A stretch of 42,832 bases of DNA from an uncultured archaeon (GCA_964534625.1 CAZHRF010000028.1:1-42832); one strand, 5' to 3'. Shown: positions 5,495 through 21,829, counted from the first letter of the stretch. Numbers and translations: made by a program. The notes: generated by a model from the letters alone, not told the origin.

Positions 5495-6571
5495 TTAACT
5501 AGCTGTTGATTTTTGTTGTAATATAGGGTGCTCCAATGCTTCATAACCTACTGTACGGCCTGCTTTGTTAAGCGCTTTTTGACCAATTTCAGTGTACAAA
5601 TGACATCTAACATTATGGCCTGGTTCAAGCACTACTGTTTCTGGAACAGTTCTCTCACACACTCCTTGTATCCAATAATCACATCGAGGATGAAAACGAC
5701 ATCCGGATGGTGGATTAATTAGATTTGGAATGGAACCTCTAATAATGGTTAATGAATCACGTTCAGCGTCAGGTCGAGGGATAGCTCCTAATAGACCTTT
5801 TGTATAGGGATGGCACGGGGTTTGGAATATAGTCATTATATCTCCAACTTCTGCGATATATCCCGCATACATAACAGCTACACGGTCACACATTTCGGCT
5901 ATTACGCCCATATCGTGTGTAATAAGAATAATGCTCATATCGAATTCTTCACTAGTAGCTTTTAAAAGTTCAAGAATTTGAGCTTGAATTGTTACATCGA
6001 GAGCTGTAGTGGGTTCATCAGCAATTAAAAGTTCGGGATTGCAGCTTAAAGACATAGCAATCATAACCCTTTGTCGCATACCTCCACTGAATTCAAACGG
6101 ATAGTTATCTACCCGTTCATCGGCACTAGGGATGCCGACGAGTGACATGATTTTAATTGCTTTATCCCGGGCTTCTTTTTTGGATACTTGTTGATGAAGC
6201 ATAATTGCCTCACCTATCTGATCTCCTACAGTAAATACGGGGTTAAGACTTGTCATAGGATCTTGGAACACTTGTGCAATCTGATTACCTCTGACTCTTC
6301 TCATTTCTGCTGGGCTTAATTTGCGTAAATCTTGGCCTCTAAAAATTATCTCTCCTTCTAAAATTTTACCCGGAGGATCGGGAACTATACCCATAATAGA
6401 TAAAGCCGTTACGCTTTTACCAGAACCAGACTCGCCTACAAGCCCCATAACTTCGCTTTTATAAAGAACGAAATCGATACTTTCAATTGCCTTAACAACA
6501 CCCTCTTCTGTGAAGAAGTACGTCTTAAGGCCTTTGACTTCTAATAATATGTCTTCTGGCGGACGACTCAT
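5495..6571 (-). CDS. oppD: Oligopeptide/dipeptide ABC transporter ATPase OppD
   Basis: GESGSGKS, FQDPMTSLNP, FSGGMRQR, DEPTTALDVTIQAQ, HPYT, GCRFHPRC; AAGGAG SD upstream. Confidence 0.95.
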   Translation of the reverse strand: MSRPPEDILLEVKGLKTYFFTEEGVVKAIESIDFVLYKSEVMGLVGESGSGKSVTALSIMGIVPDPPGKILEGEIIFRGQDLRKLSPAEMRRVRGNQIAQVFQDPMTSLNPVFTVGDQIGEAIMLHQQVSKKEARDKAIKIMSLVGIPSADERVDNYPFEFSGGMRQRVMIAMSLSCNPELLIADEPTTALDVTIQAQILELLKATSEEFDMSIILITHDMGVIAEMCDRVAVMYAGYIAEVGDIMTIFQTPCHPYTKGLLGAIPRPDAERDSLTIIRGSIPNLINPPSGCRFHPRCDYWIQGVCERTVPETVVLEPGHNVRCHLYTEIGQKALNKAGRTVGYEALEHPILQQKSTAS

Positions 6572-6934
6572 AATAAATCTCCTTTTTTAAATTAGCTTAA
6601 TATAACTAGTTTTAACTATGTAATGCAACTAGTTTGTATTTTACTCTGATTGAATGCTCCGATAAACATTTAAAAATGTTGTTGTATCATTTTTTTCATA
6701 CTCTTCCTTTTCTTAATCTTAAGCGAAGCGTTTATCCCTCTAGTTTTTTACTCTAATATTAATGCTTATTTTATACTAAACTAGGTTATATTTTCCATCT
6801 CTTCCCTCTTTTTGAGTTTTTGCTGCTTTTATATTATTTGTCGGAACTTAACCGCTTATTTTTACTATCTTTAAATAGTAATATCTATCAAATAAAAAAT
6901 ATGTCATGTCTTGTACCTAGGAGCGGAGGTTATC

Positions 6935-7876
6935 TTGCAATATATTCCTAAGCATTATATTCTGACGAATCCTGCATTTATGGAAGAACCATTCATTAAT
7001 TGGACTTATACTGAGAGTATTTTGATTACCGCTTATGATCTTCTAAAAAATGAATCCTTGCTTTACTACCTAGATTCTAATTCTTTAACATTGCGAGAAA
7101 TGATGATTGAGCATGGCTTTCCACAAAAAACTAAAATTTTCGCTGATTCTGGTATTTTCTCGTTAGAATGGTTTAAGAAGATAAAAGGACGTACTTTCAA
7201 TAAGGATTTTTCGGCAGTTCAACTTAAACCCAAAGAGGTTCTATATGCATATGAGTTAATAGATCCTGATTATCTGTGCCCTCTTGATGAAATAATATTA
7301 CCCTCTGATAAGGAAGCGGTAATAAAACAGAAAAAATTAAAAATTAAAAATAATATACTTCTTGCATTAGAATGTTTTTCTAGTTCAAAGCTAATAGGAG
7401 TTTTACAAGGAATAAAATCTGATGATATCGCAGAACTTTTTGATTTTGAAAAAGATCAAGGTATCAGAAATTTTGCTAGAGGGGGCATAATTCCCTTATA
7501 TTATCATAAAGAGTACTGTGATTCTATTCGTTCTACACGCCTAATAACCAAACATTATTCCCTTCATGCATTTGGGCTAACAAACTTGAATCAAGTAGGC
7601 TGTTATGGGAAGTGTGCTGGAATGGATTCATTTGATACAACATTAATAAGATCTCTTACATCTCAGATGTTTTTTTTAACTAAAAAACTACAAAAGAAGC
7701 GCTTCCATGTTGATCTTCTCTCAGATTGTAAATGTCCCTATTGTATTGAAGCTAGAGAATACAACTATGAATATATGGATTATCCGCCCAGTCGCCTAAT
7801 CAAGAATCTTTATTTGCATAATATTTTAACATTAGCTAATTATTCAAATAATGTGGTCTCTGTACTTGAAATATAA
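6935..7876 (+). CDS. Divergent tRNA-guanine transglycosylase (TGT)-superfamily protein
   Basis: IFADSGIFS, PLDEI, GVLQG, ARGG, LHAFG, DSFDT and Zn site CKCPYC...LHN; probable TTG start at 6935 after GGAGGT SD (ORF track starts at 6911). Confidence 0.85.
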   Translation: MQYIPKHYILTNPAFMEEPFINWTYTESILITAYDLLKNESLLYYLDSNSLTLREMMIEHGFPQKTKIFADSGIFSLEWFKKIKGRTFNKDFSAVQLKPKEVLYAYELIDPDYLCPLDEIILPSDKEAVIKQKKLKIKNNILLALECFSSSKLIGVLQGIKSDDIAELFDFEKDQGIRNFARGGIIPLYYHKEYCDSIRSTRLITKHYSLHAFGLTNLNQVGCYGKCAGMDSFDTTLIRSLTSQMFFLTKKLQKKRFHVDLLSDCKCPYCIEAREYNYEYMDYPPSRLIKNLYLHNILTLANYSNNVVSVLEI

Positions 7877-7882
7877 ATTGTC

Positions 7883-9145
7883 CTATTCTAAAAGGAAATC
7901 TGACAAAAGTTTTTGATTGGCGTGCTGTTGAATTTTTTTCTCTTTAAGCTCTCCAGGCAATTTGTATTGCGGGTCATCAAGAATTTTTTGTAGAATCTTA
8001 TAAAAGACATATGTATTATGGAATCCTCTTCTTCTGTTTCTGTTATTTCCTCTGAAAACTATTACTTCCATACCTACTTCTTTGCATATTGGACAGGGGC
8101 ATTTTTCCCACGGACGATCTCTTAGCGTCTTTAGATACTTATTGGTTACATCCCTCCGTTGAATAAATCGCTGGTTTAAATGTTTAAAAGCCTCTATTAT
8201 TTCTTCTGGTGTCCTATTTTTTTTAAACTCAAACTTTCTTAGTAATACTTGTATTGCTCTTTCATATTCTTTTAATTCTTCAAAAGTTGTTTCTCCATCT
8301 TTTACTTTATTTTTGTATTTTTTACTTCGTGTTAGAAAGGGTAATCGTAATGCTGTGTAACCTTCCCAATTGTTCCCCCTGTAGTTTTTATTAGCTCCTA
8401 ACCAAGCGGATCTTAGTGGGGATGCACTATCAAAACTTGTGACACCTAGCTCTCTAAATGCACGTATTGCTTCAAGTCTTGCTACCCCAAATAAGTGCAC
8501 ATTGATTTTATTTGGTATAACTAAATCTTTAATGGATTGAAGGATACGAATAATTGATTCTGTTTTCTCTCTCGCTATTCCACCGATGGCAATATAATCA
8601 TATCCTATGTCTATTAATCGTTCAACAGAATCTCGGTAAGATTTGATGTCCCAACCTTGAGCTGACCCAACAGGTATAAAGTCATATTGATTATTCCCTG
8701 TTTTAATGTAAAACTCTTCCGCGTTTTTTATAGAAATATTTTTTCTGTATTCCCATTCGCTTTTATATTTTGGCACACAAAGATGATCTATTGATACTCC
8801 TATATCGAATCCTAGTTTATCATAATATCCAATTATTTCATCCGTATTGAAAGGGGGTTTTTTTTCATCAATATACCCCCAAGCTCCACAGTCACCAAAG
8901 ATTGGCCCATCAAATTTAAAATATTCATGGACACCCTTTTTTTGTATAGCTTCGTATTTACTTATAGTACTCTGTATTTTCATTCTTGATATTAAAAGAC
9001 CGTCATAGTTAGGACTATCATAGATCTCATGAGAATATATCTTTTTTGAATTCTGAAAAGGTTCATCATCCCAGAAATTATACTCTGAATCAACAAGATC
9101 ATCCCATTCAGGAATAAAGTATTGCATTGTTTCTCTTTTACCCAT
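7883..9145 (-). CDS. dpdA: 7-deazaguanine DNA insertion enzyme DpdA (TGT-like DNA transglycosylase)
   Basis: DpdA hallmarks YFIPEWDDLVD, YSHEIY..PNYDGLLISR, GDCGAWGY, GVSIDH, AQGW, HLFGV, SFDSAS, CPCPIC..GMEVIVFRG.NRN.RRGFHN; likely ATG at 9145 or 9127. Confidence 0.9.
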   Translation of the reverse strand: MGKRETMQYFIPEWDDLVDSEYNFWDDEPFQNSKKIYSHEIYDSPNYDGLLISRMKIQSTISKYEAIQKKGVHEYFKFDGPIFGDCGAWGYIDEKKPPFNTDEIIGYYDKLGFDIGVSIDHLCVPKYKSEWEYRKNISIKNAEEFYIKTGNNQYDFIPVGSAQGWDIKSYRDSVERLIDIGYDYIAIGGIAREKTESIIRILQSIKDLVIPNKINVHLFGVARLEAIRAFRELGVTSFDSASPLRSAWLGANKNYRGNNWEGYTALRLPFLTRSKKYKNKVKDGETTFEELKEYERAIQVLLRKFEFKKNRTPEEIIEAFKHLNQRFIQRRDVTNKYLKTLRDRPWEKCPCPICKEVGMEVIVFRGNNRNRRRGFHNTYVFYKILQKILDDPQYKLPGELKEKKIQQHANQKLLSDFLLE

Positions 9146-9152
9146 CTTTTTT

Positions 9153-10754
9153 TTACATAGTGTCTTCAATAATCTTTTCAAAGTTTATTCTTTTTTCTTC
9201 AATTGTTGAATCTACTTCTATATTAATTGTAAATTGCTCATTTAATGGTTGATAACTGTTCGTTCGCCATTCGATTGTTAAAGTACTATCGTCATTCATA
9301 GGCGCTTTAAGAAATGGAATTATTATCTCACCATTAGCTGTTTCTACAAGATAACCGTCTACATCTTTAATTCTTATTTTGTTATTGTCTTTGTCAAGTA
9401 GCTTCATAGTAATATTTTGTAAAGGATATTTCATTTTATTCTTTAGTTTCATCCTTACTATCCATAGTTCGTCTTTTTTCTCTTTCTTATCTACTTCAAT
9501 GGTAATTTCGGGAGTTGTTTGAATTGATTTTGCTTTCTTTTTCTTTTGTTTTTTTTGTCTCTTCTTTCGAGGTGAATAAACCGATTTTTTCTTTAACTCT
9601 TCGGGATTATTTTTCCAACGAATTATAGTTTTAATCGTGGCATATTTGAAATTATTAATTAATTTCGAAGTAATACCCATGTTTTCTTGATGTTCTCGTA
9701 TCTCATCAACATATACAGATCTCAGTCCTGTTTTTGAGTCTCCCGTTTTTTCGTTCAATTCATCAATAATATCCTCACAATGATCTGTAAGTTTTTCAAA
9801 AATAGGGAAAAAGTCACTAAACTCATCTATATAGTCTTCTCTAGATTCCTCGTTTTTTGTGTCTATTGTACGCAAATCTTCGCATGCGTCTCTAATTTCT
9901 TGAATTTCTTTTTTGCTAAAATTCTTGTTTATCTGTTTTTTAATTATTTCTTGATTTTCTTCTGATACCATTAGTTCGTCTCCTCTTCTTCTAATTATTT
10001 TATTTTTTTTCATCTTTTTATGCTGAAGTATTTGATGTTTTTTTAATAAATTTTTTTTTTCTTCCCACCAATCTAAAAAAGGTAGTTGTTTTATTGTTAA
10101 ATCCTTCTCTTTCAAATCCAATGCGTAATTTAATAAAATTGTTCCTTTAGCTGCTATGGTAGCACCAATAGGCTCTTTGAATATTTGTGATGAAAGGTCT
10201 GTTTGAACAAAAATCTGTTCATCATAAGCTCTTGAGTTTTTAGGAATATCTTTAAGATGTCTTCCGAAGTGTGCGATTTCTTTACCGATATCTTTATATC
10301 TAGATAAAGATCCAATGGTCATCATATATGTTCTGCCAAGCGCTAAGTAAACAAAGTCATACTTTTTTTTCATTAATGATAAAAGATTCTGTTTGATTTT
10401 TAAATTATCAGACATTTTTTGTATTTGTTTTTTTGTTTTTCCAGAAAAAGTACAATCATAGGGGGGTAGTAATGTGTCTTCATGTACTAAACCAAATCCA
10501 GCTGAAATAATATAGTAATCAACTTCATGATTCTCTTTTAGAAGATTGATTGCCTTAGCTATACTGAATGTTTGTGGTCCTGTATAGAGGGAACCGGCAC
10601 GGATAAGTTGTTGTTTAAATTTCTTTTTGATCTCTTTCCTAATTTTTTTTGTGGTTAAATCGTTACAATCTGGCTGGTTGGGACTATGTACTCTTTTTGC
10701 TTTTCCACAAGAGCTTATTATTAGTAAACGTTGATTTGAATTTGACATGAGCAT
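9153..10754 (-). CDS. DUF6884/YaaA-like N-terminal domain joined to uncharacterised helical and beta-sandwich regions (possibly two genes)
   Basis: LLIISSCGKAK...AGSLYTG...YYIISAGFGLV...PPYDCTF...LALGRTY; internal GAGGAG + ATG at 9971; co-oriented directly upstream of dpdA. Confidence 0.7.
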   Translation of the reverse strand: MLMSNSNQRLLIISSCGKAKRVHSPNQPDCNDLTTKKIRKEIKKKFKQQLIRAGSLYTGPQTFSIAKAINLLKENHEVDYYIISAGFGLVHEDTLLPPYDCTFSGKTKKQIQKMSDNLKIKQNLLSLMKKKYDFVYLALGRTYMMTIGSLSRYKDIGKEIAHFGRHLKDIPKNSRAYDEQIFVQTDLSSQIFKEPIGATIAAKGTILLNYALDLKEKDLTIKQLPFLDWWEEKKNLLKKHQILQHKKMKKNKIIRRRGDELMVSEENQEIIKKQINKNFSKKEIQEIRDACEDLRTIDTKNEESREDYIDEFSDFFPIFEKLTDHCEDIIDELNEKTGDSKTGLRSVYVDEIREHQENMGITSKLINNFKYATIKTIIRWKNNPEELKKKSVYSPRKKRQKKQKKKKAKSIQTTPEITIEVDKKEKKDELWIVRMKLKNKMKYPLQNITMKLLDKDNNKIRIKDVDGYLVETANGEIIIPFLKAPMNDDSTLTIEWRTNSYQPLNEQFTINIEVDSTIEEKRINFEKIIEDTM

Positions 10755-10889
10755 ATTCCCTTACACACAAATGTACACTGTATAATTTTCAGTTTATAAA
10801 TATCTAAAGAAATTGATATATAAAGTAATTGGCTAAGTAAGTAAAGCAATGTATATAAGTTTGTAAAGTGTTTTTCACCTTTCGTTTTT

Positions 10890-11180
10890 ATAGATTCCTT
10901 TTCTTTTTCTAAATTCAAAACTTCTGCCTAAAACATTATTTGATCTTTTTTTAGCTTGAGGTACATGTATCATAGCATTTGTTTTGTCCACAAAGACGAA
11001 CACGACATTTAGCATAGCTACTCAATAAAATCCGCGTGAATGACACTCCTCACAATTTTTGTCATCAAGCGCCACAATTTAGTCTCATTTAACCCATCTT
11101 TCAGCATTTCTTTGCCTTAAATCGTCATTATATATTAATTTGATTGAATAAGCTGGAAAAGTGTCACATTGCAAGCTACA
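10890..11180 (-). pseudogene. Decayed DUF3795-like Cys-rich protein gene
   Basis: Manual translation: CSLQCDTFPAY..NDDLRQRNAERWVK*D*IVALDDKNCEECHSRG / frameshift / LLSSYAKCRVRLCGQNKCYDTC; fits the CGLxCxxCPAY..NCxGCxS..CxIRxC pattern, with in-frame stops. Confidence 0.6.
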
Positions 11181-11267
11181 GAAAAAAAAAGTCGTTAAAA
11201 TATATAAATATGTGAACATCTCAATTTTAGAACCTAATAAAAAAATAGTAAGAGAGAAAGATGTGTT

Positions 11268-12344
11268 TTAATCTTTCAATCTTGGATCTAAAGCATCTCG
11301 GAGTCCATCTCCAAGAAGATTGAAGCCCAATACTGTGAAGAATATCATCAAAGCTGGAAACATTGGCATCCATGGATATTCCAAAAGATCATCTTGCCAA
11401 CGATTTAGGTCATCTCCCCAACTGACAGCGTTAGGATCTCCAAAACCGAAGTAAGCCAATGCTGCAAATGTAAAGATAGTTCCTGCTATACCCAAGGTTA
11501 CGATGATAATTAGCGGCGCTAATGAATTTGGTAGTATGTGTCTGAAGATAATTCTCATATCTCCTGCTCCTAAAGCTTTTTCAGCTTCAACGAAATCTTG
11601 TTCTTTCAATGAGAAGAAGTTCGACCGAACTATTAGAGCAATACCTCCCCACGAGATAAGCGAGAAGAATAAGACCACAACTGCATATCTACCACCGGGT
11701 ATGTTTACATCTTCGAATAATACAATTACCATTACCAGTAAAATGAAACCTGGCATAGAGTAAAGAAGTTCCACTAATCTTTGGATGATATCGTCTATTA
11801 TGCCCCCATAATAACCACTAATTGAACCTAAAAATGTTCCAATGATTAAAGTGATCATTTGTCCAATGAAACCTAATGCAAGAGAGATAGTGGCGCCAAA
11901 AAAAACTCTGGAAAACATATCTTGTCCAAGTTTATCAGTTCCAAAAGGATGATTTATTGATGGTGGTTGTGTTTTTACCTCGGTAAATTTATATTTTGGA
12001 TGTCGAAATAATATTACTACTTGGTCTTGTCTCATTCCGGGCACCCAAAATTCGACGTATAGGTTATTTTGGTTTAAAGGATTGGGGTTATATGGATCTC
12101 CATCTAACCATCCTCTTTGAAATACCCATTCATCGTATGTAATCAAGAACCACGATACAAATGCCATCAATATGAGGAATAATACGATATATAATCCTAT
12201 CATTGCCATCTTGTCTTTTTTTAATCTTCTCCAAACAATTGACCACTGACCGGCACCTTTCATTGATTCTATTTCACGAATGGTTTGTTCATCCAACACT
12301 AAGTCATCCATTTCTTCTTGATGTTTTTGTTCTGCTGTTGCCAT
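11268..12344 (-). CDS. oppC: Oligopeptide ABC transporter permease OppC
   Basis: WRRLKKDKMAMIG, HPFGTDKLGQDMFSR, EAA loop FVEAEKALGA, HILPN, FNLLGDGLRDALDPR. Confidence 0.95.
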   Translation of the reverse strand: MATAEQKHQEEMDDLVLDEQTIREIESMKGAGQWSIVWRRLKKDKMAMIGLYIVLFLILMAFVSWFLITYDEWVFQRGWLDGDPYNPNPLNQNNLYVEFWVPGMRQDQVVILFRHPKYKFTEVKTQPPSINHPFGTDKLGQDMFSRVFFGATISLALGFIGQMITLIIGTFLGSISGYYGGIIDDIIQRLVELLYSMPGFILLVMVIVLFEDVNIPGGRYAVVVLFFSLISWGGIALIVRSNFFSLKEQDFVEAEKALGAGDMRIIFRHILPNSLAPLIIIVTLGIAGTIFTFAALAYFGFGDPNAVSWGDDLNRWQDDLLEYPWMPMFPALMIFFTVLGFNLLGDGLRDALDPRLKD

Positions 12345-17429: not shown

Positions 17430-18164
17430 TTATTGGATTTTTTTAATTACTCTTTTTAAAATATCTTGCATGGCATTGACTTTTTCTTCCAGTTTATTGA
17501 CTTGTTCTTTGAGTTTATCAAAATCTTGTTGAGAGATACCCTTGGCTGAACTACTACTGGGAATAGACATTGCTTTTCTAATGTCTATGATCTCTTTCGG
17601 TAAATCAAAGTCAGAACTTATTTCCGCGTTATTTGCTTTGAGCAATCTGTGTGCCAAGAGATCAAATGTTTCTTTTACATTTTGTCCTGTTAAAGCAGAT
17701 GTTTCACAATAGAAAAAATGAAATCCTGTTTCGGTTCCTAGACGGTGACAAAACTCAATAGCCATCTCCTTGGATACTTTCCTTGTCTCGACCAAATCCG
17801 CTTTATTTCCAATAACCATATACGTAAGAATAGCATCTTGGGAACCTTTTCTTGCCTCATCAAACCAGGTTCGGAGATTTGTCATAGTTTTTGGATCTTG
17901 AAGATCAAAAACCAATAAAGCTCCAATTGCACCCTTGTAAAATGTACCTCTTACAGCTGAATAAGAATCTTGACCTGCTAAATCCCAAACTTGAAATGTA
18001 ATATCATTGTCGCCCTTCTTTGTTTTATGAGAAGCAAAATCAGCTCCAATAGTTTTTAAATAATTACCTGTAAATCCTTTTCCCATATATCTTTCTCTTA
18101 TAGATGTTTTCCCCACAGCACCATCGCCTGCAAGAACAACTTTAAAATTAAATTGTTGTCCCAT
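17430..18164 (-). CDS. Rab-like small GTPase with C-terminal coiled coil
   Basis: G1 GDGAVGKTS, G2 KTIG, G3 WDLAGQ, G4 NKAD, G5 ETSAL; tail QQDFDKLKEQVNKLEEKVNAMQDIL. Confidence 0.93.
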   Translation of the reverse strand: MGQQFNFKVVLAGDGAVGKTSIRERYMGKGFTGNYLKTIGADFASHKTKKGDNDITFQVWDLAGQDSYSAVRGTFYKGAIGALLVFDLQDPKTMTNLRTWFDEARKGSQDAILTYMVIGNKADLVETRKVSKEMAIEFCHRLGTETGFHFFYCETSALTGQNVKETFDLLAHRLLKANNAEISSDFDLPKEIIDIRKAMSIPSSSSAKGISQQDFDKLKEQVNKLEEKVNAMQDILKRVIKKIQ

Positions 18165-21454: not shown

Positions 21455-21829
21455 TTACCATTCGGTTGGTTCTGGAACCATCATTATATTAAACAACAAC
21501 GCCCATACAACGATCATTGTTATAAAGAATTGCATCATCCCTTTTGTGTAATAAGTACGAATTTTAACGCCAGGCAATTTATCTTTTTGTGTAAATGCCC
21601 ATATTGATGAGATTACCATATAAATTACAATCATTGTCAAAACAGCTGGCCACTTTACAAAATTTATTAAACCAAAAATTATACCTGTAATAATTGCTGT
21701 GATAACTTTGGACCAATAAATTTGTTCCATTGTGGGCATCATCTTTATTTTTTCTATGATATTTTTAGGGATAAAAGTATTTTTTATTCCCTCAATTATC
21801 TTTTTTCCATCAATCTTCAATATAGTCAC
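21455..21829 (-). CDS. EMC6/RAB5IF(OPTI)-like three-TM membrane protein
   Basis: EQIYWSKVITAIITGIIFGLI ... KGMMQFFITMIVVWALLFN resembles the Rab5-interacting/EMC6 family pattern. Confidence 0.65.
   Translation of the reverse strand: MTILKIDGKKIIEGIKNTFIPKNIIEKIKMMPTMEQIYWSKVITAIITGIIFGLINFVKWPAVLTMIVIYMVISSIWAFTQKDKLPGVKIRTYYTKGMMQFFITMIVVWALLFNIMMVPEPTEW

Follow-up and report, generated by a model that had tools for sequence, protein, structure and literature searches.

Could an archaeon write 7-deazaguanine bases into its own DNA when neither a restriction partner nor a DpdB ATPase accompanies the predicted base-inserting enzyme? To our knowledge, 7-deazaguanines in DNA have so far been documented in bacteria that carry Dpd restriction-modification islands and in viruses. 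The question arises from positions 6935-10754 of a 42,832-nucleotide stretch of DNA from an uncultured Heimdall-type Asgard archaeon (GCA_964534625.1 CAZHRF010000028.1:1-42832; this whole stretch is referred to below as the window), where three intact open reading frames (ORFs) lie side by side: a dpdA gene, a gene for a second enzyme with the fold of tRNA-guanine transglycosylases (TGTs), named here TGT2, and ORF3, whose product begins with a DUF6884 domain. The genome assembly to which the window belongs comprises 3.37 Mb in 120 contigs and is 89.8% complete. An initial annotation, made from the sequence alone, had described the block as a candidate new archaeal DNA-modification module that draws on host preQ0 and has neither DpdB nor DpdC. 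The reading that we favour, at a probability of about 0.6, is that the block would be a variant of the Dpd DNA-modification module without restriction genes and without DpdB. Its parts are arranged as follows:

6935-7876, plus strand: TGT2, a 313-residue minimal TGT-fold enzyme
7883-9145, minus strand: dpdA, a predicted DNA-guanine transglycosylase (preQ0 insertase)
9153-10754, minus strand: ORF3, a DUF6884/YaaA-fold domain with two extra domains
10014-10754, minus strand: N-terminal DUF6884/YaaA-fold, DpdC-type domain of ORF3 (PF21818, PADLOC DpdC models, YaaA fold)
9579-9971, minus strand: middle helical domain of ORF3, followed by a Lys-rich linker (structure model)
9165-9512, minus strand: C-terminal beta-sandwich of ORF3 (structure model)

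TGT2 and dpdA converge, with 6 nt between their stops (7876 vs 7883), and 7 nt separate the ORF3 stop codon (9153-9155) from the dpdA ATG downstream at 9145. From this ATG a product of 420 residues is predicted, and the frame is open as far as an upstream TTG at 9181, which would give 432 residues. The identification of this product as DpdA was borne out: it scores 398.9 bits with the NCBIfam equivalog NF041059 against a cut-off of 200, with a match that spans positions 1-405 of 406, it is recognised by the PADLOC DpdA model with an E-value of 5e-107, and phmmer aligns it with 7UI4, the Salmonella DNA preQ0 insertase of solved structure, at an E-value of 6e-68. The GDCG, SIDH, GG, SFDS and CPCPIC...FH motifs align with the active site and the Zn site of 7UI4, in which Asp95 acts as general acid/base, Asp130 and Gly206/207 bind the base and Asp256 is the nucleophile (PMC10164549). 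Equivalents of D95, D130, G206/G207, D256 and the Zn-binding Cys/His residues are kept, and H181 of 7UI4 is replaced by Gln, as is typical of tRNA TGTs. Judged by these matches, the window's protein is a true DpdA with its active-site residues in place, and DNA would be the substrate on which it acts. In our tree the 14 Asgard DpdAs are monophyletic (support 0.91), and none of them is fused to DUF6884.

The gene directly upstream of dpdA had been described as DUF6884/YaaA-like, and this description holds. The N-terminus of ORF3 matches Pfam DUF6884 (PF21818) with 37.9 bits against a cut-off of 30, and its structure model (predicted local distance difference test, pLDDT, 84) contains three domains, the first of which, an alpha/beta domain of residues 1-245, superposes on E. 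coli YaaA (5CAJ) with a Z-score of 9.9 over 186 aligned residues (model 6-239). ORF3 carries the motifs SCGKAK, SAGFGLV (ISAGFG) and LPPYDC; SCGKAK and ISAGFG are conserved in the homologue alignment and correspond to the CxxxK and SAGxG / LSAxxG motifs of the DUF6884 family (PMC11701544). The claim that the module lacks DpdC proved wrong. Several PADLOC DpdC models match residues 8-121 (E 8e-10 and 1e-9), DpdC is described in the literature as a DUF328/YaaA-family protein (PMC5699537, PMC12839542), and according to a preprint Pfam DUF6884 covers dpdC (10.1101/2025.02.24.639861). Gene order points the same way, since canonical clusters with DndB, DpdE or DpdF carry a DUF6884 gene directly upstream of dpdA or fused to it, as in the window, so that ORF3 holds the dpdC position. 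The DUF6884 part of a bacterial fusion (L140), from a locus with neither DpdE/F nor DndB, also matches the PADLOC DpdC models (E ~1e-10 to 1e-11). The N-terminal part of ORF3 is, on these sequence matches, a DpdC-type domain, the correspondence being at the level of the domain only.

The rest of ORF3 distinguishes it from bacterial Dpd systems, as it adds ~290 residues that form a helical domain and a beta-sandwich. The helical domain (residues 260-390, with helices at 263-385 and pLDDT ~85-93, then a Lys-rich linker) belongs to no known family, and its sole structural match, to the CHD1 C-terminal domain (2N39, Z 6.9), is weak; it is present only in Heimdall-type homologues, where it shows conserved alignment blocks, and is encoded by a separate gene in some relatives. 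The beta-sandwich (residues 413-528, strands at 415-527) is of a generic immunoglobulin (Ig) or adaptin-ear-like type, with non-specific best structural matches to Ig-like domains (Z 8-10) and conserved YPLQN and APM motifs, and it is missing from the 394-residue DUF6884 homologues of Ca. Heimdallarchaeum. A protein-atlas look-up with residues 255-531 returned only sub-threshold matches (<=0.81), and a complex prediction for the ORF3 N-domain with TGT2 gave a score of 0.00, which says nothing on binding either way. In the relatives G003, G006, G008, G010, G020 and G022 ORF3 is represented by two separate genes, one for its N part and one for its C part. Fused forms of 521-565 residues occur in several other genomes, and the fusion in ORF3 is therefore not an assembly artefact. 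A run of ten T at 10051-10060 (A10 on the coding strand) lies where the DUF6884 domain meets the remainder of ORF3, coinciding with the point at which the gene is split in six or more relatives; one slipped base there would split ORF3.

The extent of the DpdA-DUF6884 pairing was assessed in the 80 DpdA loci (L067-L146) nearest to the window's DpdA, taken from species-representative genomes, and in a profile search of 301 Asgard genomes. In 58 of the 80 loci DpdA carries DUF6884 as an N-terminal fusion, and in a further 12 DUF6884 is a separate gene within 8 kb, which makes 70 together. DpdA was found in 18 Asgard genomes (6%), and PF21818 in all but one of these 18: within 0.5 kb or fused in 13-14 and at <=4 kb in two more, across six families. 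The pairing is near-obligate, and its wide occurrence in bacteria contradicts the view of the block as a new archaeal module. The canonical patterns run DndB ... queDCE - DUF6884 - dpdA, or combine a DUF6884::DpdA fusion with DndB, DpdE (E 2e-235) and DpdF (E 3e-224). A second short TGT of ~300-320 residues stands near DpdA in 30 of the 80 loci, a three-part make-up common to these loci and the window; the combination of DpdC-type domain, DpdA and second small TGT recurs well beyond archaea. A DndB-type gene occurs in 11 loci, none of them among the 30 with the short TGT, and the second TGT and DpdB may be alternative helpers of DpdA. Other companions are HerA with a NurA-like gene (16-18 loci), UvrD (14), an unnamed ~1,060-residue protein (15, all with the short TGT), the QueC/D/E genes for preQ0 (22-26), a YhhQ-type preQ0 transporter (19), and DpdE/F. 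DUF6884 appears to be a regular partner of the window's DpdA clade, fused to it in most bacteria, and this, together with the absence of overlap between short TGT and DndB, suggests that there are several Dpd architectures and that the published DpdA/B/C scheme covers only one of them.

For a module of this kind the following course of events can be proposed. The host possesses, on contig C1, a cluster of queC (159 bits), a queD-like gene, mptA/folE2 (MptA 283 bits) and a queE-like gene, because of which preQ0 should be available; the draw on host preQ0 assumed in the initial annotation has a basis in these genes, through which the flux would presumably run. DpdA would then swap guanine in double-stranded DNA for preQ0 by an Asp-nucleophile double displacement, as in 7UI4, for which it has the necessary residues. 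The DUF6884 domain of ORF3 would subsequently act on the inserted base, most simply, as homology to DpdC suggests, by hydrating the nitrile to the amide to give dADG (2'-deoxy-7-amido-7-deazaguanosine), and its helical and beta-sandwich domains might, speculatively, be accessories that bind DNA or a partner. TGT2 would be a second active base-exchange enzyme sharing the DUF6884 protein, probably acting on DNA, either at different sites or with a different 7-deazaguanine. The synthesis of tRNA archaeosine would be covered separately, since a full-length TgtA (460 bits) is encoded on contig C1; an ArcS-like gene (365 bits) lies on contig C9. As no nuclease is linked to the module, the resulting mark would be an orphan modification, epigenetic or protective, and not one half of a local restriction-modification system.

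TGT2 starts with a TTG at 6935, 5 nt downstream of a GGAGG, and its homologues begin with M-x-[FY]-IPKHY. It matches Pfam TGT with 35.8 bits (cut-off 26.3) and contains the DSG Asp, the PLDE Asp, QG, GG, HxFG, the SFD nucleophile Asp and CxCxxC...H, and these catalytic and Zn motifs are invariant or nearly so in an alignment of 18 Heimdall-type sequences and are kept in homologues from Thorarchaeota (Thor). Its structure model (pLDDT 87) consists of the TGT TIM barrel and the Zn subdomain and nothing beyond, with no PUA or other tRNA-binding domain. The description of a second, catalytically intact TGT-fold gene without PUA is thereby confirmed, and the conserved residues make TGT2 appear catalytically active.

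The position of TGT2 within the superfamily was examined by structure, profile and tree comparisons. Foldseek places ArcTGT 1J2B, QTRT1 7NQ4, bacterial TGT and DpdA 7UI4 about equally far from it (E 4e-10 to 2e-9, 13-19% identity). In hhalign the bacterial short companion TGT is the best among the profiles tested (E 1.6e-20), followed by TgtA (9e-15) and DpdA (1e-10); the bacterial short TGT is itself closer to DpdA (E 1e-34) than TGT2 is. TGT2 is not a DpdA member, scoring 21.8 bits with NF041059 against the cut-off of 200, while the TgtA equivalog TIGR00432 is not among its NCBIfam matches at E <= 0.1 and the score against the genome's own TgtA is <=27.6 bits. In the superfamily tree TGT2 forms a clade of its own (support 0.98-0.995) outside the DpdA clade and nearer TgtA, the latter a weak placement (0.69-0.76), and it is not joined with the bacterial short companion TGT despite the best profile match. 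This well-supported, Asgard-specific clade (Heimdall and Thor) is a previously undescribed branch of the TGT superfamily.

Two further TGT-like genes, tandem and divergent, were seen outside the window in the same genome (G000 contig C13:41779-44067, L002/L003), encoding 392 and 389 residues. They score ~100 bits with the TgtA model and 21-31 bits with the DpdA model, and hhalign finds the bacterial short companion TGT closest to them (E ~1e-22 to 1e-24). Next to the pair are the gene for a 448-aa PLD/NucT-like nuclease and an unnamed gene of 341 aa; with the pair included, the TGT-superfamily genes of this genome number five.

Fifteen word-based matches had at first appeared to restrict TGT2 to the Heimdallarchaeaceae, a view overturned by the profile search, which located it in 33 of 76 genomes of the family taken as Thorarchaeota (via contig SHMX01000002) in addition to 12 of 29 in the window's family (f1) and 3 of 11 in the sister family. 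In the window's family TGT2 occurs together with DUF6884 in 10 genomes and without it in 2, while 4 have DUF6884 alone and 13 neither; in Thor, 15 of the 33 genomes with TGT2 have DUF6884, vs 3 of the 43 without. TGT2 and DUF6884 are a single ORF in two genera (G034, G037; 594-643 aa when counted from the first start codon, within open frames of 611 and 651 aa), and this TGT2::DUF6884 protein is an independent fusion, because its domains come in the reverse order to those of the bacterial DUF6884::DpdA. On a JGI contig TGT2 converges, with no DpdA, on DUF6884 and its C-terminal partner gene, and in G077 TGT2 and DUF6884 share a strand and are two genes apart. In a neighbouring genus, eight genomes carry TGT2 without DpdA, and seven of these also have DUF6884, there divided into an N and a C gene. 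In both complete Ca. Heimdallarchaeum genomes DpdA lies ~3 kb from the 394-aa DUF6884 protein and TGT2 is absent, and in Thor TGT2 and DpdA are on different contigs.

A decayed copy of the block is found in relative G001 (contig C37:11775-12842, L031), where a 148-aa N-terminal TGT2 fragment converges on, and overlaps, a truncated DUF6884 gene of 238-249 aa, DpdA and the C-terminal parts having been deleted; the arrangement of the window therefore once existed in a second genus. Conservation of the triad across archaeal genomes, which the initial annotation had proposed to check, was not observed. The triad is not conserved as a unit, TGT2 being found mostly without DpdA; the pairwise links DpdA-DUF6884 and TGT2-DUF6884 hold, and they are strong.

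Several points weigh against the reading of the block as a Dpd variant. Salmonella DpdA needs the DpdB ATPase for preQ0 insertion (PMC10164549), and there is no DpdB here. ORF3 reaches no NCBIfam model, and since its match to the DpdC models covers no more than roughly their first third, the chemistry proposed for it is tentative. Foldseek, hhalign and the tree do not bring TGT2 closer to DpdA than to tRNA TGTs, its distribution is largely independent of DpdA, which is missing from ~40 of the Asgard genomes that have TGT2, and in Thor it is not adjacent to DUF6884. The co-occurrence counts, that of TGT2 with DUF6884 included, overstate the case because related genomes are not independent. Finally, the patchy distribution of DpdA at 6% and the decay in G001 fit a dispensable accessory element.

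Some of these points lend themselves to a different account, in which only dpdC-dpdA forms a module and TGT2 has no tie to it beyond its position: it would be a paralogue of the tRNA enzyme, spread lineage-wide in Asgard archaea, that modifies RNA, at another tRNA position or in another RNA. We consider this unlikely, though it carries appreciable weight: the top structural match of TGT2 is the archaeosine TGT bound to tRNA (1J2B), both hhalign and the tree put it nearer TgtA than DpdA, in Thor it occupies a single conserved neighbourhood of housekeeping type, where neither DUF6884 nor DpdA adjoins it, and both complete Ca. Heimdallarchaeum genomes do without it. An RNA-directed TGT2 is, however, harder to reconcile with the lack, in a protein of 313 residues, of the C-terminal tRNA-binding domains of ArcTGT, with a genome that already has TgtA and an ArcS-like gene, or with the recurrent link to DUF6884, which is seen as fusion in two genera, as adjacency in the window, the JGI contig and G077, and as co-occurrence across genomes. 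DUF6884, for its part, sits with DNA-directed Dpd genes wherever the context is informative. The Thor neighbourhood (L154-L157, L159; L050) places TGT2 directly downstream of an ATP-dependent DNA ligase gene, or overlapping it by a few bases, in 5 of 8 loci, with a conserved ~130-150-aa protein and then a metallo-beta-lactamase-fold protein; together with the profile match to the bacterial short TGT, the ligase hints at a DNA context. We estimate DNA to be, by a modest degree, the more probable substrate of TGT2.

A second alternative turns on the missing partners. The absence of DpdB reported in the initial annotation was upheld, in that neither NF041060 nor PF14072 (DndB) matched anywhere in the genome at its 89.8% completeness; in the control genomes PF14072 matched B. 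subtilis and NF041060 matched in none. DpdD and DpdE also gave no match in the genome, the DpdD control having matched nowhere, and DpdF gave only generic helicase-level matches (E 4e-10 or weaker) with a model that also matched all 14 controls. The restriction genes dpdD-K were not found in the genome, dpdG-K not having been individually searched. No nuclease, helicase or ATPase gene adjoins the module in the window, and none lies within ~8-10 kb in Ca. Heimdallarchaeum, in G034, at three Thor DpdA loci or at one DpdA locus of family f20. It is nonetheless conceivable, if rather doubtful in our estimate, that the module provides the self-marking for a defence system, restriction-modification-like after all, with an effector that either is unlinked or belongs to no recognised type. 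In bacteria the same DpdA clade stands beside HerA/NurA-like genes, UvrD with PD-(D/E)xK, DpdE/F or DEAD helicases in 45 of the 80 loci, the block occupies a variable spot of a transporter operon and differs in location between relatives, and the TGT-like pair on contig C13 adjoins a PLD-type nuclease gene. These features are offset by the negative searches just described and by the identity of the genome's HerA/NurA-like genes on contig C86, which were considered as an effector pair and rejected, as they form part of a housekeeping herA-nurA-mre11-rad50 operon.

We see little chance that the block is what is left of a formerly complete Dpd island, now in decay and without function at present. 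The G001 copy, reduced to its TGT2 fragment and truncated DUF6884 gene, the presence of DpdA in as few as 18 of 301 Asgard genomes and the lack of a partner ATPase or nuclease would all suit such a history, but all three ORFs remain intact, Heimdall and Thor homologues with 30-65% identity retain the catalytic residues, and the Asgard DpdAs are one clade in which each keeps a DUF6884 neighbour across six families. Least probable is the initial annotation's own version, with no DpdC and with an ArcS/DUF5591-like domain that might join the second TGT in converting 2'-deoxy-preQ0 (dPreQ0) to 2'-deoxyarchaeosine (dG+): conserved Cys residues in ORF3 (SCGK, PPYDC) and the fact that archaea make archaeosine from preQ0 speak for it, but neither ArcS nor DUF5591 is listed for ORF3 by Pfam or NCBIfam at E <= 0.1, the domain is instead a DUF6884 domain of YaaA-like fold that matches DpdC models, and the genome has a separate ArcS-like gene.

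The favoured reading, a Dpd variant without DpdB and without restriction genes, can be set beside the systems already known. The bacterial DpdA/DpdB/DpdC system of Salmonella enterica serovar Montevideo (7UI4; PMC10164549, PMC5699537) offers an orthologue-level match for DpdA, and likewise has a DpdC-type DUF6884/YaaA-fold gene directly upstream and a dependence on preQ0; the window differs in its archaeal host, in having no DpdB/DndB-like ATPase and no dpdD-K found, in the extra TGT paralogue next door and in the Gln in place of H181. The closest non-Asgard relatives of the window's DpdA, at 44-50% identity, are bacterial DUF6884::DpdA fusions of ~675 aa (Desulfosporosinus fructosivorans, Paenibacillus tyrfis, many cyanobacteria), which contain the same two domains in the same order as the ORF3 N-domain and DpdA, fused in those bacteria whereas they are separate in the window and in all 14 Asgard sequences of the tree. 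The fusion loci usually include preQ0 genes together with HerA/NurA-like, UvrD, DpdE/F or helicase genes, and the window has none of these. NCBI annotates such fusions as DpdA, and we found no paper that describes them as a class.

The DpdAs of phages and archaeal viruses (phage 9g, CAjan, iggy; PMC6884629, PMC10516641, PMC10484667) also operate without DpdB and without a restriction partner, and their modification is protective. In contrast to these, the block lies in a chromosomal transporter operon with no viral genes around it, and a search of 50,697 phage records gave one weak DpdA match at 30% identity and none for TGT2 or ORF3 (tblastn); a virus origin of the block is unsupported. With TgtA and QTRT1-QTRT2, TGT2 has the TIM barrel, the Zn subdomain and the full set of catalytic residues in common, and the two TGT paralogues side by side in the window recall the eukaryotic QTRT1/QTRT2 pair. 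It differs from TgtA, of which the genome has its own copy, in lacking the PUA and C-terminal tRNA-binding domains, and from QTRT2 in keeping the catalytic Asp residues.

If the favoured reading is true, a chromosomal dpdC-dpdA pair without DpdB or nuclease, inherited as a single clade in Asgard archaea of Heimdall, Thor and Loki type, would extend this modification to cellular archaea and to a restriction-free setting. It would also provide a natural test of whether DpdA works without DpdB when given a DpdC-type partner or a second TGT. TGT2 adds to the TGT superfamily an undescribed branch with intact catalytic residues. A bolder proposal, which we advance tentatively as a possibility, is that the chromosomes of Heimdall and Thor archaea receive 7-deazaguanine from the cell's own enzymes, with no restriction partner, by means of two unrelated transglycosylase lineages, canonical DpdA and the TGT2 family, each relying on one shared DpdC-type DUF6884 protein; TGT2 would then be a new DNA base-exchange family, co-transcribed with a DNA ligase in Thor. 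Were this two-transglycosylase proposal true, an epigenetic or genome-maintenance mark would exist in the closest prokaryotic relatives of eukaryotes.

The block sits between two genes of an oligopeptide ABC transporter operon:

5495-6571, minus strand: oppD, ABC ATPase (Pfam ABC_tran and oligo_HPY), right-hand edge of the inserted block
11268-12344, minus strand: oppC, permease (Pfam BPD_transp_1 and OppC_N), left-hand edge of the inserted block

The oppC orthologues are 73-79% identical across the family. The gap between oppC and oppD measures 4.7 kb in the window (6571-11268) vs ~360 bp in G001, and in a neighbouring genus it is filled by a different ORF of ~280 aa; the gap is a variable spot. 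Only short AT-rich chance repeats were found when target-site duplications and terminal repeats were looked for at the flanks of the block; the window contains no tRNA gene and no Rfam match, and no integrase was found. The module behaves as an accessory element, yet it is kept within Asgard lineages.

The assignment of the source archaeon to the Asgard group, of Heimdall type, agrees with the gelsolin, Ras-family GTPase, EMC6 and NFACT genes present in the window, and the nearest homologues are labelled Candidatus Heimdallarchaeaceae in their sources. Among these genes, the eukaryote-signature proteins typical of Asgard archaea are a gelsolin-repeat protein at 142-837, a Ras-family small GTPase at 17430-18164 and an EMC6-like protein at 21455-21829.

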